From: Octopus sinensis
Lineage: Eukaryota
DNA: 64,000 bases
Direction: 5' to 3'
NCBI RefSeq assembly: GCF_006345805.1
Contig: NC_043004.1
Span: 4,464,001-4,528,000 of the forward strand
Shown: positions 9,401-63,104 of the stretch, piece by piece
Layout of the letters: each line of letters opens with the position of its first letter
How positions within the stretch are numbered: the stretch's first letter is position 1
The notes under the pieces: generated by a model
What the model saw: the letters and a program-made list of their open reading frames with translations, nothing else
The model's database searches: none
What the model was told of the DNA's origin: nothing
Translations under genes and position numbers: made by a program

Positions 9401-12400
9401 TCAGCCCCACTACATGATACTTAGGGCAAGTGTCTTGTATAGTCCTAGACAGACCAATGTCTAGTGCAGGGCTAGCCAACCTGAGGCCTGCGAGCTGCAG
9501 ACTTTTATCTTGCGGCCCGCTTGATACTTTCTTGAAATGGGTTTATTTAAACAAACATTTTAAAAATTTAATCAAAAATTGAAGATTGTAACGAAAAGTA
9601 AAAAAGAAAGATACTACAGGTGCAAGAGTGGCTGTGTGGTAAGTAGCTTGCTTACCAACCACATGGTTCTGGTTCATTCCCACTGTGCGGCACCTTGGGC
9701 CTTCTACTATAGCCTTGGGCAGACCAAAGCCTTGTGAGTGGATTTGGTAGACGGAAACTGGACGAAGCCCGTCGTATATATGTATGTATATATGTAAGTA
9801 AATAGAATATGTACCAGACTTGAAACTTAGTGTTTCAGCCAAAAGAGAGCAGCAGGATCCACAGGTCACTCAAGGAAAGGCCCAGAATCTGGTCAAGACC
9901 ACGTTGGAGACCAACTCCAAGGACTTCCTGACAGATGCTGCCTTCATAAGTGAGCAAGTGTTAGTGGACTTGTTCATCAAGTTTAACACAGCCAACCCCT
10001 CCAGTGCTGCAGTGGAGCGTTTGCTCTCTGTGGGTAAGGACATCTTGAGGGTCAAGAGGGTCTGGTGAAAAACTTTGACATGCTAATTTTCATGAAGAGC
10101 AACATGCATCTCATGAACAAAATGGAGAATGAGAAGAGAAAAAATTAAATTATGTAGATATTGTGTTTTTCAAATTTAAAAAAAAATTTTAGTTTAATAC
10201 TAATAGTGATTTATTTGAGTTTCTTTTTTTACCCTTTTCTGACTCTAAAAGCCTGTAAAAACCTAAAAAGGGGCCCAAACTATGAAATTAGCCTTTTTTA
10301 GGTCTTTTAAAAGTTAAAACTATAAAATCAGCATTTTAAACTCTAAGACAAAACAAAACAATAATTTTTGGGTTCTAAAGCTCTTAAAAACACCAAAAAA
10401 AGGCTGATTTTATAGTTTTGGCACTTTTTAAAGGTGTTTTTAGAGCAAAAACTCATTTTTTGTTTTTTTTCTATAATAAAAATTAATGATAACAGTTTAT
10501 CGATAACTTCCATTACATTTTTAAAGAATTAACAGTTATTGTAGTTAACTTTTTGGTTAATGGTTTAATGGTTAACAAAGTTAAATTTTCAATTAACAGT
10601 GCCCACCTTTGCTCTTAGATACATTATCTAAAGTGTCCTTCTTTTTTCAAACAATATGATGTGGCTTGAGAGTGAGAGATTTGTCCGCCATATCTACCAA
10701 GTCTAGTCATCACGTAGATGACCAAACTCACCCACTCACATCAGCTTGTCATTCAGTAAGTGATTCAGTTATCAGTGGCTCGTAAATAATACAAATAGAA
10801 GTAACTTTTTACTCACCTGTAAGTTAGCATATTTCTCAATATCTTGCTGTAAGTAAAAGAAACCACAGAATGAGATGAATTCAAGCAATGTCAAGAAGAT
10901 GGAACAAGTCTCTACTAATATTATAAGTTTAATACAAAAAAACATACATCAAAGTTAATAAATGATCAACAGTTATTTATCCAATGCAAATGTAGGAGAG
11001 ACAGCATCAGCAGCTAAACCGTTTATGATAAGAAAAAAATATAAATTGGCGACTAGACAGAGTGTAGAAATGGCTGTGTTGTTCAGAAATTCACATATGA
11101 AGTGAAATATTAAAAGACAGAAATGAAATTGAGTTGCAGAATCTAGTACAGAAACACGGTGCTACTCAATGGTGCTTAAAATATATATTTGTTTTACCAA
11201 CTGATTTATGCCTCAGCTTAACACAAGCACAAAACATATGTCTAATATATAGAAAGTATATTCAGATGTTGAATTTTGACAAACAAATGAGGAAAATGGA
11301 AAATAGAGAGAGAGGTGTGAGTACATACAGAATATGTGTGTATTACAGTTCTATATTTAAGAGATGAGGAATTATGTATATTATTTACATTTGACAGATA
11401 TTTGTCCTCATCTTGTTTGCTGTTAATATGTTTTGGCTGATATACCGTCCAGCCTTCATCAGGTGTCTTGGGGAAATTTCGAACCTGGTTTCTTATTCCT
11501 AACATATTTTTTGATGTAATTATTATTTTTATTATTAACGTTGTGTTAACAGCAAACAAGATGACAAATATCCATCAAATGTATATAATGTATGTGTGTA
11601 TTATTTATTTATTTTATATAGCATTTTGAGAACAACAACATTGTTGGGTACATGTTTCCAGTGGATCAATCACTGCTTCTCTGAATTTACAACATATCAC
11701 AAAAGTAACAAGGATTGGCAATGTAACTCTGGTAAAACAAAAGCGAAAAAGGCATTTTTGTTCAAAGGCATCAGTTTGTGTCTTCTTTTTGTAATGTTTG
11801 TATTTTTTGCTTTAAAATATGCTCATATATACCCATATACATTTATAATACACACACACACACACAAATCAAGAGAACTTAAATACTGACCATCATCAAT
11901 GCATCTTCTTGTAAAAGTTTTACAGAATGGTCACTAAATGTACTGGACATTTGGTGTTTCTTTTCTGAGGAATCCAACACTTGGAGTAGAAACTGTGATG
12001 GAGGTATGTATTCTTCTCCAGATTCTGATGAAAGTGGAAATAACAGATTAGGTTAGATAATATTTCAAGAGGAATAGATATTCTCACTTCAACCCTAAAT
12101 TTGTTTCAATTAATTTTGAAAATAATGAAGAATTTAGTAAACTAACCTTGTCATTGGTGTTTGGAACATAAATTAACATTGAAGGCTCTAATTTATACCA
12201 CTTAAAGAGTATTATCATACAACCATGAGGTGATCTGCTGGTATCAAAAAGATTAAGCAATACATTTCTCTATATGATATTTAAAGGGCACCTTTTTGGC
12301 TAGCAGTTGTTCTCATAGTGACAGCAGCTTCTATTTTGCAGTTAATCCTGTAGTTTCTTTTCAAAATCATTCTGGTAACTATGACCACTTCTACAAACAC

Positions 12401-12947
12401 AGTCTCTCACATGTTAACCACTCATCTTATTAAGACGAGTATGACACTGTTGCTCTCATATAGCAAATGCTAACAAAATTAATTATAAACTAGTACTGAA
12501 AACAGTAGAAAGAGTTCAAATCTTTGTTTGCATGATAAAAGAATTTACTATTAATGAGCCAAGAGGTGGGCTGTGACACTGCATCTCCTTGTCTATATCA
12601 ATTCTTTATTTGAAATTATAAACTGAAATTTAGAAAAAGAAAATGAGAAAAAAAAAATGAAGATTAGTCTCACCTGAGCAAAGGAATTTCATAATTGCTT
12701 CAGTACCTTGGGAACAAACCTCTGTAAAATGAAATAAAAAATAATGATAATAATGATAATAATCCTTTCTACTATAGGCACAAGACCTGAAATTTGGAGG
12801 GAGGAGACTAGTCAATTACATCAACCCCAGTGCATAACTGGCACTTATTTCATCGACCCTGAAAAGACGAAAGGTAAAGTCAACCCCCATGGAATACCAC
12901 TAAGCATTTTGCCTGGCGTGCTAATGATTCTACAAACTCACTGCCTC

Positions 12948-12984
<37 letters not shown>

Positions 12985-12994
12985 GTAATAGTAA

Positions 12995-13026
<32 letters not shown>

Positions 13027-16000
13027 ATAATAATAATAATAATAATAATAAACGCCCTGATGCAGTACCATGCAGTAGCTTTCATGGCTTCTGATCTTAA
13101 ATGATTGGAAGTGTTATCATGTACATTATTTTGTCTTGGTATAAAAGATGGGCTATAGCAAATACTCTGCTCAATACTACAGATTTGCTTGTCAGTTGTT
13201 TGACCATAACCAGTTGAGCATGTCCCTTAGTGGCTGACGATATGTGCATCTCTGATCTAGAGCAGAAGTAGTGGGGGAGGCATCATAGCCATGTGTTGAG
13301 AGGAATTCTTTGGGGTTTGAATAATTCACCTCTGGAAACATGCATGTTTTGTTCATCATCCTCAAACAACCCTTATTCAGGGACCTTTTGAATGGGATGG
13401 GCTACTCAACCTGAAGATAATTCTAACTGGGTCCCATCTGCAAGGTTATGCGCCATTAATCTTGATATGAGATAGCCATGTCGCACATATGTGGCTGTGA
13501 TGCATGTGCCTGGTGTACCCTTATCAGACGGGTAGTCATGATGGGTATACTGGGCTTCGTATAGTTTACTCACTTTCACTGCACTAATAATAATGAGAAG
13601 AAGAAGAAGAAGAAGAAGAAGAAGAAGAAGAAGAAGAAGAAGAAGAAGAAGAAGAAGAAAGAAGAAGAAGAAGAAGAAGAAGAAGAAGAAGAAGAAGAAG
13701 AAGAAGAAGAAGAAGAAGAAGAAGAAGAAGAAGAAGCTGGTGGTGGTGGTGATGGTGACAGTGATGATGATGATGATGATGATGATTTCCTAACGTTGGA
13801 TAAGGTAATGTATTTTCTGGGAACGAACAGTAAATGAAATCAATCTCAACATTTGGCTGGTTCTTATTTCATTGATCCTAAAAGGATGTAGTTGATGTCT
13901 TACCTGCAGGTGGATGGACCATATTTGCGGCATCCACAAGCAAGTTCTCTAAAGCACGCAATTTCCACAATTCAGTTGGCAGATTAGTTAATTGGTTGTT
14001 GGAGAGGTCAAGAGTTCGGAGGGACGATAAATTGCATAGACTGGTGGGGATTTCTTTTAATTTATTTCCTGCAATACATAAGAAAACATGCATTTGTTAG
14101 AACCATTGACCTAACCAGCAGAAAAACAATACAACATACAATATAATCAATACAGATGCTAACAACTAACTTAGCAATGAGCCTAAAGACTTAGCAATGA
14201 TAGAGACACTAATTAAATTTTTCACAAATCACACCCTGCCATCTTAAAAAAAAAATGTATCACATAAAAAAGAATATGTATACTCTTTACTCTTACTCTT
14301 TTACTTGTTTCAGTCATTTGACTGTGGCCATGCTGGAGCACCGCCTTTAGTCAAGCATATTGACCCCAGGACTTATTCTTTGTAAGCCTAGTACTTATTC
14401 TATCGGTCTCTTTTGCCAAACCGCTATGTTATGGGGATGTAAACACACCAGCATCGGTTGTCAAGCGATGTTGGGGGACAAACACACATATATATACATA
14501 GAAGGGGCTTCTTTCAGTTTCCATTTACCAAATCCACTCATAAGGCTTTGGTCGGCCCAAGGCTATAGTAGAAGACACTTGCCCAAGGTACCATGCAGTG
14601 GGACTGAACCGGGAACCATGTGGTCGGTAAGGAAGCTACTTACCACACAGCCACTCCTATGCCTATATATAACAATATTCCTTTAATATATTTGTGTTTT
14701 AATAATAAATCCATATATACAGCAGTAACATCTATATAAACATATAAAACAGAGTGTTTCATGCAACAACACACACACATGTGAGTATATTCAGAAGCAT
14801 ATTCATCATATCACACAATATACACATTCATAAAAATACATACACCCATGTTTGAGTACACATCTACAAACACACCACATACATCAACTCTTTACCGCAA
14901 ACATAGTTTTCTCTAAAACTCTTAATAAGTAATATTATGTTAAACTCTTTACAGCTGTTTCTGAGGTAGGTGTTCACTAGTTGTAGTTTTGCGCATTGTA
15001 TTTACATAAGCATAAGGTACATTGGTGCAAGTTACTGTATATGAACAACATAAATCAATGAAAATTTTTTAATCACAAAACAAAAATAAAAAAATTAATA
15101 ACAACCAACAAGAAAAATTACCTTTGAGATTTAAAGACTGTAAAAACTTTAAATTTCCAATGGACTCTGGGATTTTCTTCAACTTGTTGCCTTCTAAATT
15201 TAAAACCTAGAAGAGAGTGAGAAAGAAATATGATTTAGTAGATTATTTCAGAGCAAGACCAAATAAATAAATGAAATTCTATGCTCTATGGTGTGTTCAG
15301 GTCTGCCTCAAAGCAACAGAGTCAACCATTATACAGCAGAAGTTCTTTTTCAGATTTTCTTTCAAGTTAGATTTCTATATAATGCTACCATAGCTTTATG
15401 TATATGTAGCTTCAGGTGATGAGATGGCAGAATCTATAGCATGCTGGGAAAAAATGCTTAGTGGCATTTTGTCTGTATTTATGTTCTGATTTCAAATTCT
15501 GCTGAGGTTGACTTTGTCTTTCAACCTTTCAGGGTTGATAAAATAAGTACCAGTTGAACATTGGGGTCGATGTAATTGACTTAAGCCCTCCACTGCGCTT
15601 GCTGGCCTTGTGCCAAATTTTGAAGCTAATATGTATAAGTAGCTTAATTTCTGCCTTTGTAATTAAGCAACTAAGTAAATGAAAAAAATTGCTGATTATA
15701 TCAAGTTTCCCAATAATGAGGCCATTTTTCTAGCACTAACACACAAACCAATGCCAACTGCAGCACCTTCCAGACTGTGAAGTATGGTATTAGCCTCAGC
15801 ATTTGTATCTCACATTAAGACTAATTCATGAGCATATTTATTCTGCATCTGTTATTGTGAAGGCTGGATATCTGGAACTTCTTGATTTTGTGAGGGTAAA
15901 GCCATATTCCTTGTATTCTACTGAGCTGCAGAGGACAGTTAAGAGAATAAAAAGAAAAGTGCAAGGTTGTCTCTTTGTAAAACATCAATAAGTAGATAGT

Positions 16001-19000
16001 TAGAAAATTCTGTGGCCCCATCAGGTAAGTGCATTTTAGCTCAAGTGTTTTTGTAGAACATCACTACTGTATCTCCCCTTTCTCAGAGGATTCCGTAGGC
16101 TAGCCAAAATATTTTGCACTTTATCTCTGATTCTTTCAACTGAACACTAACCAAAAGCTTTGAAACTATGTTGGGGTGGCACCAACATGTGTACACTACA
16201 TTATCATCGTTTAACATCCGCTTTCCATGCTGGCATGGGTTGGATGGTTTGACTGATGACTGGTGAGCCAGAGGCTGCACCAGGCTCAATCTGATCTGGC
16301 AAAGTTTCTACAGCTTGATGCCCTTCCTAATGTCAACCACTCTGAGAGTGTAGTGGGTGCTTTTACATGTCACCGGCATGAGGGCCAGTCAGGCAGTTCT
16401 GACAACAACCATGCTCAAAAGGTGTTTTTTACATGCTACCTGCATGGGATCCAGTTCAGCGGCACTGGCAATGACCACGCTCAAATGTTGTCTTTCACAT
16501 GCCACCGACATATGTGCTGGTAAGGCAACGCTGGCAACGATCACACTTGAATGGTGCTTTCCATGTGCCACCAGCATGGGAGCCAATCTGTGGTGCTATT
16601 TATAATGTACCTAGGAAAGAAAACATCACCAAGGGAAGATACAATAAACTTCTTAAAGTAGCAAACATCATTAGAAAAAAACAGAGGTGACTTTGCTGAG
16701 CAGTGCTGGACACATAAGGAGGAGTTACTAAGTTGAGAACTTCCAATGGACACCTCAAAATAGTCATATATGCAATGACCAACTTGCAAAAACGTATGTC
16801 AATTAGTTTACATATGATACAGGATGTCACTGAGAAAAGCCACCATATGGCATGGAAGACAAGAGATGGGTGGAGGATCAGAAGCATGAGAACGCAAGCA
16901 AGCTCAACCTGATCCCAGTGATGATTATTGTGTGTTACATAATTTTTTAGTAAAAACTACTTGCTAAATCTATGCCACCAGATGATTTAACCTGGATATC
17001 AACTAAAGCATAAATAATGTAAATGAGAAATGGCATGCATGGTCCTCATTTCACTGGAGCTGTTGAAATCCAATTAGACTGAAATTGTCACCTGTATGTA
17101 TTTGGACTAACACCAAAATTATTTTGGAACAATGCTGAATATACTCTCTTACACCTGAATACCAAACTATTTGAGTAAACCTTCTATATGATTTAGTTTG
17201 TGTGCATGACACAAATTTCTCAAATGGCACAATGCCAATTTTGTAAACCGACCTTATGTGTTACAATAACACTATTATGATAAATACAGCTGCTCAAGAA
17301 GCTAGAAATACCAGCCAAATCTCTTTTTAATTATATCCTGCCATCTAATGAACACATTAGATAAAGAAGTACTAGATATCTTTAAAAGGATGGGATGGTC
17401 ACAGCTGAAATACTTTTTGATTATAGGTCTGTTCTGTTACAGTTCACCTGGGGCTTAACAGCAACATAAAGAATATTATAATGTAATCATTCATATTCCT
17501 TAAAAGACAACAGCAACATTTCTATTTACCTGTAAGCTGCGGACCTGGTCAATATTTTCTGGTAGATGTTTGATAGAATTATTGTGTGCATCAAGTACCT
17601 GGGAGTAAATGGCAAAGAAGATAAACAATTAGATACACATATGATATATATATATGAACAATTCAAACATTCAAATCAATGATGGAACCTTTACATGGTC
17701 ATTCAATCTGTTTGAAAAAGCAAAGAAATTCCCTCAAATCATATCCGGCTATCTATTTTTTTAAAAAAAGGAAGAAAACTGAGAACATTGTAGTGAAGGA
17801 TATATATACCCTTTTACTCTTTTACTTGTTTCAGTCATTGACTGTGGCCATACTGGAGCACCGCCTTTAGTCAAGCAAATCAACCCCAGAACTTATTCTT
17901 CGTAAGTCTAGTACTTATTCTATCAGTCTCTTTTGCCGAACCGCTAAGTTACGGGGACGTAAACACACCAGCATTGGTTGTCAAGCGATGTTGGAGGGAC
18001 AAACATAGATACACACATACATATATATACATATATACGACAGGCTTCTTTCAGTTTCTGCCTACCAAATCCACTCACAAGGCTTTGGTCAGCCCGAGGC
18101 TATAGTAGAAGACACTTGCCCGGAACCATGTGGTTGGTAAGCAAGCTACTTACCACACAGCCACTCCTGCGCCTATGTATAAATGTATAAAATAGATGGT
18201 TATTGTTAGAATATTTTTGACCATAGATCCACTTGATCAGGACTGACTCGGGGCTAAACAACAACAATTTAAACATAGCTCTTCACTTAAACATGCTTGG
18301 CTAAATCCAAAATTTCTGAGAGCTTGTCATGTTAGCGAAAGAAAGGGATGTACAATTTTTCCCTTCAAAATGCAGAGTAGTTCTTGTGGAATGTTAGAGA
18401 ATTAGTTACGAGTGAATGAGCATTAAGGAAATAGATCTCTCTATTTGTGTGTCAGGATGTTGACAGAAGTAAAGTGTTGAGTGAAAGATCACATGAGAGC
18501 CAGCATCACTACATAATGTTATGGATGATGGCAGGAGAGAATCATCATCATCATCATTTGATGTCTGCTTTCCCTGTTGGCATGGGTTGAACAGTTTGAC
18601 AAGATCTGGTGAGCCACAGGGCCATGTCAAGCTTCAATGAAAGCTCTGGCATGTTTTCTACAGTTGGATACCCTTCCCAATGTCGACCACCCTACAATGT
18701 GTATACTGGGTGCTTTGTTTTTATGCCACCAGCACAAGTGGGATCACTAAGTTGCAAAACAATAAAAGAATAGAAAAGGAAAAAAGATCTTATGATTTAA
18801 GTGAGGAAGGAGTATTAGAAATGGGGAAGGGGCTGAATGTCAGGTTTGAGAGACTAAAATATAATAGAGGGACACACAGAGGTATCTTGCTATAGAAGAG
18901 ATACATGGCTACCCCACATCATATAAGGCTGAGTAATGGTAAGTGTAGTAGAAGTGTGTTGGATATCTATCCAGTCATACTGCTTGCACAGATTCCCATG

Positions 19001-28338: not shown

Positions 28339-29538
28339 CTTCTTTCCTTCTTTCTTTCTTTCATTCATTCATTCATACATACATACATTACATACATACA
28401 TACATTCATACATACATGGATGTATATATGATAGGTGCATAGTTCAGTGCTTAGAACATTGGGTTTACAATCACAAGGTAGTGAGTTCAATTCCTGGACC
28501 AGGTTGTGAGTTGTGCTCTTGAACAAGACACTTTATTTCATGTTGCTCCACTTCACTCAGCTGCAGGAATGAGTTGTGACTTCACCAGTGCCAAGCTGAA
28601 TCAGCATTTGCCTTTCCCCTGGATAACATTGGTGGCATGGAGAGGGTAAGGCCGGGTTGCATGGGCAATTGCTGGTTTTCCATAAACAACCTTGCCTGGA
28701 TTTGTACATCGGTGGGGAACTTTCTAGGTGCAATCCTATGTTCATTCATGACTGAAGAGGGGAGGAGGGGTCTTTACTCTTTACCCCATATGATAGGCTT
28801 CCACACAGTTTCCATCTACCAAATTCACTCATCATAAGTCATCAGTCAGCCTAGGGCTACAACAGAAGACACTAGCTCAAGGTGCCACATAGTAAGACTG
28901 AACCTGAAACAACATGGTTACAAAGCAAACTTCTTAATGACACAGCCATGCCTGCACCTACAATAGTCATGAACACATTTTTATGTAATTGGAATAGTTG
29001 TGACCAATGAACCAAATGTTATATATTTTACCTGAATCCCAGGTGTGGCATATAAGCACATTGCTGTCATACAAAAGACATACAAATGTGTTTATAAACT
29101 TCCTTTTAGTATAGATGTAGTAAACAAGTAGCATTACATAACTTGTGAAATTACTGAATAAGGAGGACTTTCCATCAGTGTGATGAGATTTTGTTAATAG
29201 AGTAACTACAACGTATAAATAACTGCAGCAGGCCTTGACCTTATGTGGCTTGTCTTGGCTTGACTTAATGAGAAAAAAAAACGCCAGTAGGAAGTAGCTA
29301 AAGATAACAGTAGATAAGGGACTGAATTAACTGATAGACAGCAAGCCAAGAGTTAATTACTAGATGACCTCTTTTACAAACAGTGACAAGTGATATAGTA
29401 TATAGTTTCTTGCTTCAAGTAATTTCTCTGATAGCTTCTAGAAGGAAAATAAATCATACGGTTCTATATTTAAGAGATGAGGAATTATGTACATTATTTA
29501 CATTCAACGGATATTTTGTCCTCATCTTGTTTGTTGTT

Positions 29539-29584
29539 AACACAACGTTTCGGCTGATATACTCTCCAGCCTTCATCAGGTGTC
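29539..29584 (-). ncRNA. Minimal type-I hammerhead ribozyme motif
   Basis: GACAC CUGAUGA A GGCUG(GAGAGUAUAU)CAGCC GAAAC GUU GUGUU: stem I GACAC/GUGUU, 5-bp stem II, palindromic AACGUU stem III. Confidence 0.8.
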
Positions 29585-29851
29585 TTGGGGAAATTTCGAA
29601 CCTGGGTTCTCATTCCTAACGTATTTTTCGATGTTATCATCATTATTATTATTATTATTATTATTGTTAAGGTCACTGCTTGGAATTGAACTCGGAATCT
29701 TAGGGTTAGTATCCCGTGCTCTTAACAACTATGCCATATGCGTTCAATTCCAAGTAGTGACCTGGACAATAACAATAACAACAACAACAACAATAATAAT
29801 AACATCGAAAAATACCTTAGGAATGAGAACCCAGGTTCGAAATTTCCCCAA

Positions 29852-29897
29852 GACACCTGAAGAAGGCCGGAGGGTATATCAGCCGAAACGTTGTGTT
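29852..29897 (+). ncRNA. Minimal type-I hammerhead ribozyme motif
   Basis: GACAC CUGAAGA A GGCCG(GAGGGUAUAU)CAGCC GAAAC GUU GUGUU. Confidence 0.75.
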
Positions 29898-32800
29898 AAC
29901 AACAAACAAGATGAGGACAAATATCCATTGAATGTAAATAATGTAAATAATGAAAATAAATCATGTTCACCATTTTCATGCCAGTTTTTAGCACTGGATT
30001 TTCCCACTCCTATTTATGAAAGCTTCATGCTACCACAGTTGATTAAGCACCTAATCAGTCCTAACTGAACAGATCTATGATCAATCTAGCCTTGACCATC
30101 TTGTCTCTTGATTTCTTGTTGGCCCACGCCTCACACAATGTCTTCAAAAGGTACCAACCAAAGAATATTCATCGAAGATACTGGGCCCCACAGAATTTTG
30201 TATAAATATTACACTGACTCCTCCAACAAGGCCCTCAATCAATTTTCCTTACCTTATTTAAGAAAAAAAAAGGAAAGAAAATGGCTCCAATCCACTTGGG
30301 AGAAGTCAACCTGCAAAAGATTGGCAATGTATGTATGGGGTTAAGGAAATTTAATCACTCAGCCACTCAATACAATGAATATCAAGACAACCAGTGAGCA
30401 TGGCCTTCTGAGGCCCTTCAGACCGGCGGTGATTGTGGTGGTGGTGGCGGTGGCAGTGAGGTTATGAGAGTCATCATCACAATAACTGAATAGTCAATTT
30501 AGTTGATATTAAATTAAAGATACAGGTGAAAAATAAGCAAAAAAAACCAAAAAAACCCAGAAATATTCAAACCTGGAAAGCTAGGATTGAAGAGCGTTTA
30601 CTCTGGAGTGACGTAAGTGATCAATGTATTGATTCTGTTTAAGGTGAAATTGATAAACTCATGGCAGTAGAGGTCATTTTAGCTACAGTAGAAGCAGCAG
30701 ATGGAAGAGCTAATAATCAGGTGGGCATTCTCCATCTGCCCTTTCTGCTGGAAATACCTAATGGACTATGACTTCCCAAGCTGTTTCGACGTGGAACCAT
30801 TTCACAATTTTCCAAAGATTATGGAAAAACCATGCCTATATTTTATGGAAAACACTACTACTCTAATTTTAATAATTGCTGTAATCCTTTAGCCTTCAGG
30901 TTACTCTGTCAAATGTAAATACTTATTTATCCACATTGTTTTGAATTAATTGTGCATATGTTATCTTGTAACTTTGAGATTTTGGTGATGTGATTGTGTA
31001 CTTTTAGACTGACATTGTAAGGTAGGTGGGAGAGGTTGGATCTGATCAATTTGAGCATAAAAACAAGTAGAATATTTGGACTGGATATGACTGGTTTAAA
31101 TTCTAATGGGTTAAAGAGAAAATTTATTTACATAAAAAGACATATGATAACATTATTTTGACAATGGTGAATATGAATTTCTTACAAAATAAATTTTTAT
31201 TAAATTTCAGTAAAGTCTGAATTTTTTTATGGAATCCATTTTGGGAAACACTATACCAGTCTATTAGTTGTTCCATCTGCATGTTCTTCTGAAACTAAAA
31301 TGACCTCTACTTCGCTGTTTAGGTAAGGGCTTTTTTTTTTTTTGATGAATTTGAATATGTGTGTATGAAGTAGGTGCATTACTTCCAACAATTAATCATG
31401 CAAATTTACTATTTTTTTCAGAGTCACTCAACAAATGTAAGCATCTAAATATGTACAAAAAACAAATAAGCACTGTTCATGTTGGGAATTATAAAACAGC
31501 AGAAGACTACAATAACAGCAACAACAACAACACATCAAACAAAGTATTGTTAGGTAGTCACTAATTGTAACAACAAAAACCAACACGGCAGGAAAGAAAT
31601 TAATAGTTAAGAAAAATTATTCAGTTTCTCCTTTTGTTTTTATTTACCATTTAGTTAGGAAAAGGACAACAGCTCTGAAGCCTTTATTTAAAATTTTTTT
31701 TAGGCCCTCCATGATAAGAAGGATGAACGTAGTCAGCTATCATCAAACTGGACACTTGGCCTAAATTCTTGCAGTGGAGAGAACTCTGCTAAAAGCACAT
31801 AAAAGGACCCAAAGTGGTAATATTAAATTCACAGAGGGATTAAACTAAAAACTCAAAATAAATACCACGATGCATCCTATCTAACAATTCCACTTATCCA
31901 CTGCCCTGGATTTGGAGGGACTTTATTTTATTAAACTCATAAAGACAAATGGCAAATGTATGCATCTGTATATTAGATTTCTGTTAGCTCCAACAAGTGT
32001 GACTGATTGAGTGGTTTGGTAAATAAGGGCTGACATGGGACTCAGCAACAACCTATAATAGAGCTTAGTTGAAGCTATGATAGCCCCTGGATTTGAACCC
32101 AGAATTGTCAGGTAACTAGCAACATATCAATTAACTAGTAAAAATCACCAGTGAACTGTTTCTTATGCTTTATAAATAATTTTTGTTATGTAGACCAAGG
32201 TTAGAAATGGCACTGCCTATGGTCAAATGTCACTCAAATACCTCACCTTCAAATTGCTGGACCAGTTCCTTTCTTCTAAAGGTACAAGGCCTGAAATTTG
32301 AGGAGAGGGGACTAGTTGATTATATTGAGCCCAGTGTTTCACTGGTACTTAATTTATCGACTCCAAAAGGATGAAAGGCAAAGTCAATCTTGGCAGAATT
32401 TGAACTTGCTGGACTGGTTCCTTATCCGTTCAGACATTAAGATTATAATGTAAGCCAACAAGAACAAAAGCATTTTAAACAAAACAACAATTTCTGGGAG
32501 GCTTTATTTTTATTGTAAGCAATATTCTGGAACAGACAATTGCTGACACAATGACTACAACAGTTATACCAATTAAATTTTATAGTGAAACATCTGAGAG
32601 GAGGACAGCACTTTCATTATTGTGACAGAAATTACATGGAAAGTCCTAATTCTGAAAGCTTTCATAAGAAACGTATTAACATTCAACTATTCATTAGATG
32701 TTTGTGGTCAATTAAGAAATGGTAATTAGAAATAAATGGTAACTAAGTTGTTTTTTACAGTAGAGAGAAATCGTCATTCATTAAGAACTGTAACTTAGTA

Positions 32801-50769: not shown

Positions 50770-51769
50770 TAAATTGTGTATCACGCTTTATTGCAGGTCA
50801 AATTTTTATTGATGTTTTGATTATTAAATATTGTACAAATGTGAAACTTGGTCCACTGAAAGATCCTAGGTAGGTACGTACACAGTGAACATTTCAATTG
50901 TATTGATAAGCTACATACAAAGTTATGTTGAGGTATGTAATTTGAAGTGCTTTCAACTGTGTCATGCTTTATTACAGGTGTACAAAAATGTCTCTGAAAC
51001 GACATCTGACAGCTACAGAGAAGATGCAGATTGTTGCAGGTCTCGCAGAAGGTTTACCTGTGGGAGAATTAGCCCAAGAGCTTGGTCGGGATACAAGAAC
51101 ATTGAAGGCGTATGTGGAAAACCTCATCCCCAAACCAAGGCAAGATAAAGGTACAAGAAGAAGTGTATCTCAGAGTGACATCCAAAAAATAGGTAGACAA
51201 GTAAGAAAAGACCTCAATAGCACAAGTGCTGCCATATTTGAAAGTGCTGGGGTTGCTCTTTTGTCCAGAAGCACCTGGTGTAGCATCCTTAAAGAGATGG
51301 CCAGAAGTGTTAAGTGCATTGCTAGACCCATCCTAAGCAAGAACCACAAAGAGAAGTGTATTGATTAGGCATGGAAGTACATGAAAATCAATTTCCAAGA
51401 TGTCTTCTTCATGGATGAGGCCAGAGCTACTCTGGATGTCCCCGACAGATGGACCAAAGTTTGGGTACCTCTTGGAGCTTCTCACCTGCAATGCATTTGG
51501 CGTCAACAAGGAGGTGGTGGTGTAATGTTCTGAGCTGGAATTATAGGAAATGAACTTGTCAGGCCTTTCAAGTGCCAGAAGTTATCAAACTCACCAGCAA
51601 CTCCTACACTGCATTTCTGGAGGAGCATTTTCCAGCATGGTTAGATGATCTGCCACTCTCATGTTGATGGCGATTGATTTTTATACATGACAATGCTACT
51701 TCGCAATCAGTCAAGCCTACAATTTCATACCTCGCAACTTTGGGAATCACAGGCCAATCACTCATGGCT
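50770..51769 (+). mobile_element. Degenerate Tc1-like transposon (HTH and DDE fragments), truncated by a SINE at 51770-52118
   Basis: ORF 50964..51368 has an HTH (ELAQELGRDTRTLK), then VFFMDEARATLD, RQQGGGGVMF*AGI and HDNAT motifs with stops and frameshifts. Confidence 0.85.
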
Positions 51770-56515: not shown

Positions 56516-58362
56516 AACATTGCAATCCTTCTGCATAATTACATCCCTGTGAAAGTTGCTACCACTTCATGACACATAGTAATTATATATAAGTAAATCA
56601 TGATTGAAAAGATGTGATCAATCCTGATCAAGAGAACTCTATGAAGACTAGGACATTGCCCTCATTCAATAACTAATGAAAAGAGAATGCAATAAATTCA
56701 TTTTATTTTAGCAAATGACCCAGAACTTCCTTTAGGTGAATGCTTTGTTTACACTTTTAGTTTTTTTCTTCCCTTTTTTACCTCAGTAGCACAGCAAAAA
56801 AAAAAAAGCCATAAATAGTAAATAAATAAATAGAACAAATAAAAGAACACTTCTTTATAGCAAGATGGACTCATAAGGTAGAAAAAAAAAAACTGTACAG
56901 AAAATCATCAATATCAATTAACGATGTATTTGAAACCTCTCAGGCCAGGCAAAACCGGACACCAATGCAAAACCTTTTAAGACAAATTAGTATGTTTGGC
57001 CTTGTTGAAGGAAATGTACAGTAACAATATCACTGCATTAAAAGTTAATGTATATGACAAGCGACAGTGTGAGAAGATAAAGATTGGATGTGGTCAGTAG
57101 GTGGCGTAACCATTAGCAACTGGTAATGAATATGATAACAGTAATGGTCATGGGAAGGGGGGACGGGGCCTAGATCAACAAAGTAGGCGGCTTTATTACT
57201 TAAATTATCTGCTTAGTATCAGAAAAGGAGAACAGAACGCTAAAACCTAAAGAGCTTTCGTTAGCCATGTAATTTATTAACAAAGTACTTTTGCAACAAC
57301 AACAGGCATAAATGAATGAGCTACAAAGCAGCATCTGTGTAACAAATCATTTATTAAATAAGATCAGTAATCAACTGCACTAGAGTGCATTTGTGCATGC
57401 AGAATGCATAAACACCACTGTAAACAAGATAATAGCCAGTTTATATTTGTTTTGGCAACTTATGTAGACCATTCAGTCAAGTACATAAAGACTATTAATA
57501 GCTGCATGTTGAGCTAATTGTAGATGAACAGTAATAGCACCTGACATTGAAAGACAACATAAAAACAGTTTCAAGTTTTTATAAAGGGAGTGGATGCGAA
57601 CCAAATATAACACTAATCATAAGATCATCTCTTTGTGTAAAGCTGTCCCTGCTCCCATCCCGCCCCAGAATTTATAGTCTTGTAAGCTGCCTGGTGACCA
57701 CAATAGTGCTGGTAGCACAAAAACAAATAAAAAGCACCCAGGGTATGCTGTAAAGTGGTTGGTGTTAAGAAGGGCATACAGTCATAGAAATCATGCCAAA
57801 GCAGATACTGAGGCACAATGCAGTCCTTGGACCCACCCGATCCTGTCAAACTGTCTTACCTATGCCACCATGGAACATGGACGTTAAATGATGATGATGA
57901 TGATGATTAAAGGACTTCCAGTCTTGAGATATTTCATTTTTCTTTCTTTTAGACATAGAGTATCTAAGTGGCCTTATTCAATGCATCCTTTGTTATTTGA
58001 GATAGTGAGATGTGCTTTGGGGAACATTTCACTCTCGTTTCTTTGAGGTCAAGTGACAGCATTGATGGCTCACAATAGAGAAGGTTGTCACAAATAAATA
58101 TTTTCGCAAGAACCAAACTAAAAGGCAACCTGCACATTTTTCCTTCAAGGGATTCTATTAGTTTGCTCCTGAAGTAACAAAGCTCATTGATTTACACTAA
58201 AGAAGAAAAGACAACTCTTCTCACAATATACAAAAAGAATTAGTGTTATTTAGAATTTTGTCAAAATATATACCTGAATCTTTCACTTCTATATTTAAAA
58301 GATGAGGAATTATGTACATTATTTACATTCGATGGATATTTGTCCTCATCTTGTTTGTTGTT

Positions 58363-58408
58363 AACACAACGTTTCGGCTGATATACCCTCCAGCCTTCAT
58401 CAGGTGTC
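58363..58408 (-). ncRNA. Minimal type-I hammerhead ribozyme motif
   Basis: GACAC CUGAUGA A GGCUG(GAGGGUAUAU)CAGCC GAAAC GUU GUGUU. Confidence 0.8.
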
Positions 58409-58614
58409 TTGGGGAAATTTCAAACCTGAGTTCTCATTCCTAAGGTATTTTTCTATGTTGTTATTGTTGTTATTATTATTATTATTGTTCAGGTCACTGC
58501 TTGGAATCAAACTCAGAATCTTGGGATTAGTAGCCCACACTCTTAACCACTACGCCAAGATTCCAAGTGCGATTCCAAGCAGTGACCTGAACAATAACAA
58601 TGGTAATAATAATG

Positions 58615-58645
<31 letters not shown>

Positions 58646-58705
58646 CAACAACAACAACATCGAAAATACCTTAGGAATGAGAACCCAGGATCAAAATTTC
58701 CCCAA

Positions 58706-58751
58706 GACACCTGAAGAAGGCTGGAGAGTGTATCAGCCGAAACATTGTGTT
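58706..58751 (+). ncRNA. Hammerhead motif, stem III mutated
   Basis: GACAC CUGAAGA A GGCUG(GAGAGUGUAU)CAGCC GAAAC AUU GUGUU. Confidence 0.6.
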
Positions 58752-59169
58752 AACAATAAACAAGATGAGGACAAATATCCGTCAAATGTAAATAACGTAC
58801 CTGAATCTTTGTTGTCAATAAGAAACAAACATTCTTTATTAGGCTGACCCAGTGTTCTTTCTATGACAGACCAGTAAATTGGTTCACTCATTTTCAAAGG
58901 GTTAAGTAAAGCTGGCACTCCAACAGTTATCTCAAGTGTTCCAGTTGATGTGATCAACAGAACAACCTGTTCATGAAATTCAAGTGCAAGTGGCAGAGCA
59001 CTCCACAGACATGTGTTTCCTCAACATACTTCTGAGAGAGATTCAGTGTGACAAAATGCAACAAGGCTGGCCTTTTGAAATACAGGTACAATTTATTTTT
59101 GCCAGCTGAGTGGACTGGAGCTCAAGTACACAAAATATGAGGATGATGATGACGATGTAAGTCAAAATA

Positions 59170-62688: not shown

Positions 62689-62862
62689 ACATATCATCAT
62701 CATCATCATCGTCGTTTAACGTCCGTTCTCCATGCTAGCATGGGTATATATGTATATGTGTGTGTGTACATATATATATGTGTGTGTGTATGTATATATC
62801 ATCAGTAAATCATAAATCAAAAAAAGAAGCACACTCTAAGTTATAAAGCAGTAGAGTATATA

Positions 62863-63104
62863 TAGATAAAGATAGATATGGCCAGTCTATGGGGTTAACT
62901 AGTGTTTCACGTCCAAAAAATGCTTAGCTTTAAAGCATTTCTTCAGACCCTAAACCCTATGGCCTCACTAGATAATTTTGTAGGGAGACCACTTACTATA
63001 GAGGCCATAGGGTTTAGGGTCTGAAGAAACACTGTAAAGCTAAGTGCTTTATGGATGTGAAACCCAGGGTAACCCCATAGACCAGCCATATCCATCTTTA
63101 TCTA
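62863..63104. repeat. Inverted repeat (arms 62863-62966 / 63001-63104) with hammerhead motifs (family C)
   Basis: Arms are reverse-complementary around a 34-nt spacer. Confidence 0.8.
63017..63075 (+). ncRNA. Type-I hammerhead ribozyme motif (family C)
   Basis: GGGU CUGAAGA AACACUGUAAAGC(UAAGU)GCUUUAUGGAUGU GAAA CCCAGGG UA ACCC; stem I GGGU/ACCC, near-palindromic stem III, GUA cleavage triplet; mirror copy 62892-62950(-). Confidence 0.65.

Follow-up and report, generated by a model that had tools for sequence, protein, structure and literature searches.

A tRNA-headed, hammerhead-bearing repeat family of Octopus sinensis with Penelope-type ends

Penelope-like elements (PLEs) that encode an endonuclease (EN+) carry in their pseudo-long terminal repeats (pLTRs) a minimal hammerhead ribozyme with a palindromic stem III and, on one end, an optional tail of ∼30 nt (PMC4209133, PMC3846280, PMC8557442, PMC11167929; what is said here of cited papers refers to the parts of them that were available). 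An inverted, truncated partner, a tail of 30–40 nt at one end and duplications of 8–10 bp make up their layout (PMC3846280, PMC8557442), the tail being the interval between two internal start sites of reverse transcription, and the enzyme nicking and extending both strands (PMC11167929). In Schistosoma, opposite-strand minimal hammerheads are found 100–700 bp apart (PMC4209133). The same genus harbors Sm-alpha and Sj-alpha, in which a tRNA-derived head is followed by a hammerhead and which RNA polymerase III is believed to transcribe (Pol III; PMC2770079, PMC6765202); non-LTR retrozymes and MRC1, a further non-autonomous derivative of PLEs, are short and non-coding, bear a hammerhead and have been suggested as users of PLE enzymes (bioRxiv 10.64898/2026.07.22.740005; PMC7229834; PMC8557442). 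Here, we describe a repeat family that resembles each of these systems in part, represented by a unit at positions 29458–29951 of a 64,000-nt stretch of the Octopus sinensis genome (NC_043004.1, positions 4,464,001–4,528,000; hereafter the window, to which all plain positions refer).

With EN+ PLEs, this focal family shares the minimal hammerhead with its palindromic stem III, the optional tail on one end and the inverted, 5′-truncated partner; unlike them, it has no open reading frame (ORF) for reverse transcriptase (RT) or endonuclease, and a putative internal promoter of tRNA type would take the place of the pLTR promoter. The combination of a tRNA head with a hammerhead is already known from Sm-alpha. 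The hammerhead of Sm-alpha is canonical and acts from tandem repeats, whereas that of the focal family is minimal and tandems are rare; the available parts of the Sm-alpha descriptions contain neither a PLE tail nor inverted long/short pairs nor a PLE partner (PMC2770079, PMC6765202). Retrozymes are head-to-tail tandems which release circular RNA, whereas the octopus family is dispersed, inverted and tRNA-headed. We consider it probable, at roughly 80%, that the family is a non-coding, tRNA-headed repeat with a minimal hammerhead and a two-ended tail, which is transcribed by Pol III and travels like a short interspersed element (SINE) as a passenger of the RT/GIY-YIG enzyme of a PLE. That it works like a PLE pLTR equipped with a SINE promoter is judged just as probable.

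The focal unit is enclosed by exact 13-bp direct repeats, read directly from the sequence, and consists of two tail-out inverted arms joined head to head. The inverted arm segments (29515–29668 and 29768–29921) are 92% identical, the inverted tail segments (29484–29516 and 29919–29951) 94%. On the minus strand, the left arm reads tRNA-like head, (AAT/AAC)n spacer, 52-nt body, minimal hammerhead, tail core and an extension of 26–27 nt. The right arm is 5′-truncated, its first base (29742) corresponding to nt 55 or so of the head. The features of the unit, and the two further pairs of the family in the window, are as follows.

29445–29457, plus strand: left copy of the 13-bp target-site duplication, from sequence; contigs from the runs of two other organisms end their match at 29457 and 29459
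29458–29483, minus strand: long-tail extension (the "tail" of PLEs), left arm only; its end is the presumed distal start of reverse transcription
29484–29538, minus strand: tail core present in both arms; folds together with the long tail into a hairpin, in whose loop the short end lies
29539–29584, minus strand: minimal type-I hammerhead of the left arm, predicted cut between 29544 and 29543
29585–29636, minus strand: 52-nt body of the left arm
29637–29669, minus strand: (AAT/AAC)n spacer of the left arm
29670–29741, minus strand: tRNA-like head, A box 29726–29736, B box 29682–29691, assigned by alignment
29742–29763, plus strand: 5′-truncated head of the right arm, from the B box onward, abutting the left arm head to head
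29764–29851, plus strand: (AAC/AAT)n spacer and body of the right arm
29852–29897, plus strand: minimal hammerhead of the right arm, N7 = A variant, with one mismatch in stem II
29898–29951, plus strand: short tail, right arm, ending at the presumed proximal start of reverse transcription
29952–29964, plus strand: right copy of the target-site duplication
58287–58800: second inverted pair of the family, with long and short tail and a 13-bp duplication
11344–11592: third inverted pair, truncated, with a 13-bp duplication; 3 nt are missing from its long arm at the cut site

An earlier note on this DNA, made from the letters alone, had described two monomers meeting head to head within a 13-bp target-site duplication, only one of them with an extra tail, and without any T4 run. 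Duplication and one-sided extension were found as claimed, and the lack of a T4 run holds for the left monomer. The junction and the inverted arms likewise stood, but the right arm, in which the A box is missing, is no full monomer. A simple-repeat or poly(A) 3′ end is absent from the family; instead, there are two fixed complex ends.

Whether the unit is typical was judged from 73 distinct loci (27 from one search, 39 from dimer queries, 4 sampled at random and 3 from the window, after removal of 24 duplicate rows). Inverted pairs made up 60 of them, 58 of which were scorable, and all but one of these (57/58) combined one long with one short tail; the same combination was present in 16 of 16 pairs retrieved by a query containing neither the long tail nor the second arm. 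An adjacent target duplication of at least 8 bp accompanied 43 of the 58 pairs, compared with 14 of 600 mismatched flanks (the focal pair is scored as a miss, the script having absorbed part of its repeat); duplications were mostly 9–13 bp long and 74% AT. The short tail ends in the loop of the tail hairpin, the long one 3′ of the hairpin. In each of two lists of 100 pattern matches, all seven close pairs were tail-out inverted and none was same-strand, and one same-strand close pair was met in a third list; tandem copies are rare, and the head-to-tail hammerhead tandems by which retrozymes are recognized are not what characterizes this family. Because the long/short tail rule and the target duplications are joined by the lack of a poly(A) end and by resident coding PLEs of the same layout, a PLE-type insertion mechanism is strongly supported. 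A 9-nt unit at the end of the short tail (e.g., 29930–29951) is present one to four times among copies, which suggests that the proximal start site was primed repeatedly or that slippage took place there.

The genome carries intact RT plus GIY-YIG ORFs of 775–781 amino acids, in which the RVT_1 domain scores slightly below its cut-off. The resident PLEs bear a minimal hammerhead and a tail of their own, and locus L044 is a tail-out pair bearing GIY-YIG. The existence of a partner PLE for the focal family is presumed. A pattern search for it, from which the SINE body was excluded, turned up nothing but an older sister subfamily whose head is the same. As to the resident PLEs themselves, several apparently intact ORFs of this length lie at loci L062, L065–L067, L069 and L063; they represent at least two families and are near-identical within one, which suggests recent activity. 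Inverted PLE repeats of about 2 kb were seen at L080 and L094.

The family is short, non-coding, dispersed and of high copy number, and is flanked by target duplications. The genome-wide count that the earlier note had called for returned at least 7,505 dispersed exact-motif arms, this being the number of occurrences of an exact 24-mer of the element (reversed control, 0). Forty evenly chosen 10-kb stretches contained four hammerhead-bearing loci and two head-only matches; scaling to the genome (2.72 Gb) yields ∼27,000 loci, with a Poisson range of about 7,000–70,000. In a sample that favors good matches, the divergence of arms from their majority is 4.7%, or 3.5% once CpG sites are set aside. 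The older-looking sister subfamily has the same tRNA-like head, a changed loop II and a stem I mismatch; it gave 344 pattern matches and is known from two copies that were read (L217, C7:63674249-63674473, and L218, C12:79366429-79366653). In four runs labelled as four other organisms, 12,000–19,000 contigs each match the element, and loose contig ends cluster at 29456, 29457 and 29461. In two of the four runs, the match of a flank contig breaks off at 29457 or 29459, and the contig continues for 500 and 18 letters; this is the pattern expected of an empty site. The focal pair and the pair at 58 kb recur ∼111 kb upstream, at C8:4382005-4382494 and 4410888-4411403, with 100% and 98% identity, as a segmental duplication or an uncollapsed haplotype.

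Among 45 near-complete aligned heads, the majority A box reads TGGCGTAGTGG and the majority B box GTTCGATTCC, at the spacing of a tRNA; the focal copy departs from the majority in either box by point changes. When the head was compared with 20 of the 46 listed tRNA genes of the octopus genome, covering six amino acids only, tRNA-Arg(TCT) came out best (score 64, shuffled maximum 43), followed by Cys with 60, so close that the parent tRNA is not fixed. A tRNA origin of the head is supported at the level of the family, and Pol III would be the polymerase transcribing the element. The head with A and B boxes in the earlier note is borne out for the left arm and the family, but the right arm has a B box only. 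A weak Rfam tRNA match (20 bits, below the cut-off) elsewhere in the window (28433–28502, plus strand) is probably the head of another SINE family.

Both hammerheads contain the core CUGANGA...GAAA, the palindrome AACGUU and the triplet GUU, and display the features by which minimal type-I hammerheads have been described (PMC4209133), namely, a CUGANGA/GAAA/NUH core, stems I and II, an unpaired base before stem II and palindromic positions 15.2–16.2. The predicted fold of the left one has 5 bp in stem I and 6 bp in stem II (z −2.7; 2 of 200 shuffles equally stable), and a motif scan requiring a stem II of at least 5 bp found it and returned no match in 20 simulated 64-kb sequences; stem II of the right one contains a C-A mismatch. 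Core and triplet are retained in 68 of 110 arms. Thus, both minimal hammerheads of the earlier note are upheld by core, palindrome and triplet, the left one also by its fold. Substitution is lower in the hammerhead core than in the body (2.0% vs 3.3%), a difference too weak and too selection-biased to be used. An inverted pair cannot yield a ribozyme dimer in cis, and therefore any dimer must form between two RNA molecules. For minimal hammerheads of PLEs, low activity in vitro and no evidence in vivo are reported in the accessible text of PMC4209133. An ATG within the hammerhead core opens ∼25 codons through the tail (29576–29499, minus strand), and an open frame runs through the body of the element. 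In the Anolis PLE, the ORF similarly begins inside the hammerhead; the 25-codon frame may be a relic of a donor N-terminus or a product of chance.

Several results weigh against a Pol III-driven, ribozyme-bearing passenger of a PLE. None of the four randomly sampled hammerhead-bearing loci scored as a full inverted pair, which speaks against generality of the insertion signature (at one of them, L123, there is a 13-bp duplication along with a short inverted stub). The hammerhead or tail of the focal family recurred at 0 of 66 PLE loci, a small sample, mostly of one family and drawn among 5,029 GIY-YIG candidates. Mobilization by a PLE, as claimed in the earlier note, has the tail rule and the duplications on its side, but the autonomous element with a matching 3′ end that was to accompany it was not found among these loci. 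At the focal head, Rfam gave no tRNA match and ARAGORN no tRNA call, and the acceptor stem does not pair. The Rfam hammerhead covariance models gave no match to the focal motif at E up to 10, so that the label hammerhead denotes a motif and a fold, not a library match. Covariation in the stems, on which the earlier note had made the ribozyme depend, did not emerge: there were no double changes in 7 rows and three in 116 arms, all at one CpG-affected pair and none compensatory beyond CpG decay. For neutrally decaying copies of few source genes, missing covariation says little.

The copies might alternatively be 5′-truncated ends of an ordinary PLE, that is, solo pLTRs of a longer Pol II unit in whose 3′ untranslated region (UTR) a piece of a SINE had been captured as the head. 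Resident PLE 3′ UTRs are indeed rich in (AAC/AAT)n, and pLTRs can carry unrelated sequence in trans (PMC3846280). Yet full arms in the 45 heads start within a few bases of one point just upstream of the A box, with no common sequence further 5′, and the older sister subfamily keeps the same head, which makes this origin improbable. Even less credence is given to a conventional SINE dependent on a long interspersed element (LINE), with inversions made by twin priming of the L1 type: tRNA head, microsatellite and target duplications of 9–15 bp are ordinary SINE traits, but the LINE-type 3′ end by which SINEs are recognized is replaced by two fixed complex ends with neither poly(A) nor simple repeat (LINE 3′ UTRs themselves were not searched). 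Twin priming of the L1 type inverts non-overlapping parts, whereas both arms of the octopus pairs run over one and the same stretch and stop at two fixed points. A more serious alternative, to which we nevertheless incline little, concerns how a PLE enzyme would build the pair: by fold-back self-priming on one template, as proposed for PLEs (PMC3846280), the arms would be copies of one molecule. In its favor, rare variants are common to both arms more often than expected (20 vs 4.7, in 18 of 58 pairs), so that some pairs reflect a common template or gene conversion, and junctions are near-palindromic where both heads are complete. The free core position N7 of the hammerhead tells otherwise. 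It is U or A in the source genes (A in 36 of 113 arms; also C in one other organism), and the arms of 15 of 55 pairs, the focal pair included, are discordant for it, where random pairing expects 24 (p 0.007) and single-molecule copying ∼3; this is far above the per-site background divergence of 3.5%. Either arm, too, may be the longer one at its 5′ end. Hence, self-priming cannot be the sole route. The pairs appear to be a mixture, roughly half looking like products of two templates and the remainder as if one template, or gene conversion at a later time, had been at work. Tail differences of the type TCG/TTG/TCA, being partly CpG decay, were excluded from this comparison, and junction assignments, partly confounded by self-complementarity, were used qualitatively only.

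The hammerhead itself offers a second mark. In 15 of 114 arms, about one in eight, the 3 nt that immediately precede the predicted scissile bond on its 5′ side are missing, compared with 0, 0, 0, 1, 1 and 4 deletions at six further sites whose microhomology is as long or longer. Genome-wide, ∼800 copies carry exactly this deletion (estimated from 881 matches, 91 of the first 100 being the deletion variant), 216 have lost one AAC unit nearby and 7,505 are intact. At the 5′ end of the 3′ cleavage product, a complementary DNA (cDNA) would terminate in AC, which could anneal to the GU ending the 5′ product, giving exactly this deletion; we tentatively propose, at somewhat less than even odds, that RT would have jumped across self-cleaved RNA. 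Even odds are given to another explanation, in which the deletion goes back to polymerase slippage where a CpG and a palindrome form a hot-spot, or to descent from a handful of source genes already deleted, and the hammerhead is an inert RNA signal. It would leave identical letters, and several observations speak for it or against a jump: the stems do not covary; deleted arms show slightly more CpG decay (0.27 vs 0.21, p 0.048; non-CpG, p 0.48); a 3-nt deletion elsewhere in the tail occurs in 4 of 116 arms, so other hot-spots exist; in the runs of four other organisms, the cut-site deletion stays below the 10% listing threshold; and copies beginning at the cut site show no genome-wide excess, the 881 matches being mostly the deletion variant. 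Moreover, the in vitro cleavage of minimal hammerheads from PLEs is weak (PMC4209133); according to the available text of PMC11167929, cleavage can be dispensed with in vitro and the cut is not where any Anolis reads end; and both arms are deleted in 1 of 13 affected pairs (one arm in the other 12), which is compatible with template inheritance. On the other hand, the deletion is found on both N7 backgrounds (8/77 and 6/36) and in both arm types (6 long, 9 short), and a perfect AAC repeat only 8 nt away, with 5-nt homology, loses a unit about four times less often than the cut site. In the sister subfamily, whose stem I is broken, the local sequence is unchanged and CpG decay, by hand count, is higher; there, the deletion was present in only 3 of the 100 copies listed, some of which may be mutated copies of the main family.

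Taken as a passenger of a PLE, the element would be copied in the following way. Pol III would start at the A/B-box head and, with no internal T4, read through into the flank. By analogy with PLE biochemistry, the PLE protein would then nick both strands of AT-rich DNA ∼11–13 bp apart, and each nick would serve to prime within the tail of the RNA, using the distal site for one strand and, 27 nt upstream of it, the proximal site for the other. Each cDNA would run up to the 5′ end or stop short of it, the two frequently being made on different RNA molecules, and would then be joined to the other head to head, a step for which the arm comparison provides part of the evidence. Least certain of all, the hammerhead might cut some templates, the enzyme crossing the break by the 2-nt GU match and leaving the 3-nt deletion; as above, this step is put forward with reserve. 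A fuller version, in which two RNAs of a Pol III SINE pair through the palindromic hammerhead stem, a dimeric RT-endonuclease of a Penelope helper copies both from two fixed starts into one inverted pair, and the RNAs sometimes cleave each other to leave about a thousand 3-nt scars of germ-line cleavage, seems to us unlikely in its entirety.

Tailed in this way, the family would be of some consequence. SINEs are defined as passengers of LINEs, and a family combining a tRNA head with PLE ends would bring in a helper of a third kind. Its thousands of short natural products make the formation of inverted long/short pairs testable, by two templates or by self-priming, and likewise the cutting of minimal hammerheads in vivo; the 290-nt monomer is small and could serve as a substrate as it stands. 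If transcribed, the preformed inverted repeats, which number in the thousands, could also provide double-stranded RNA for editing.

Ohshima and Okada reportedly described tRNA-derived SINEs (retroposons) of octopus in 1994 (cited in PMC10886601); the focal family may be one of their three, so its sequence is possibly already named. Full-text literature searches found no tRNA-headed element with PLE ends and no octopus hammerhead SINE. The accessible main text of an octopus repeat annotation from 2026 does not mention ribozymes (PMC13282606). New here are the arms that often differ at a source-gene variant and, perhaps, a cut-site deletion pattern fitting a scar of RNA self-cleavage in living cells; such a scar was absent from the full-text matches, none of the searches having been aimed at it.

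The window also contains a second, unrelated hammerhead family (62800–63104), again a pair of inverted arms with their tails outward, one tail long and the other short, which sits in TA/CA repeats and in which no tRNA head was seen. It was present in 2 of the 40 random stretches (L110 and L121), with stem I longer and re-paired at L121 and U/A variation at N7 as in the focal family. More distinct minimal hammerheads with a palindromic stem III were found at L034, L063, L075, L114, L117, L135 and L136, several of them beside (TA)n and none with upstream A/B boxes; the genome seems to hold many short families derived from PLEs. Finally, an open frame at 50946–51368 (plus strand) resembles, by eye, an N-terminal fragment of a Tc1/mariner transposase.

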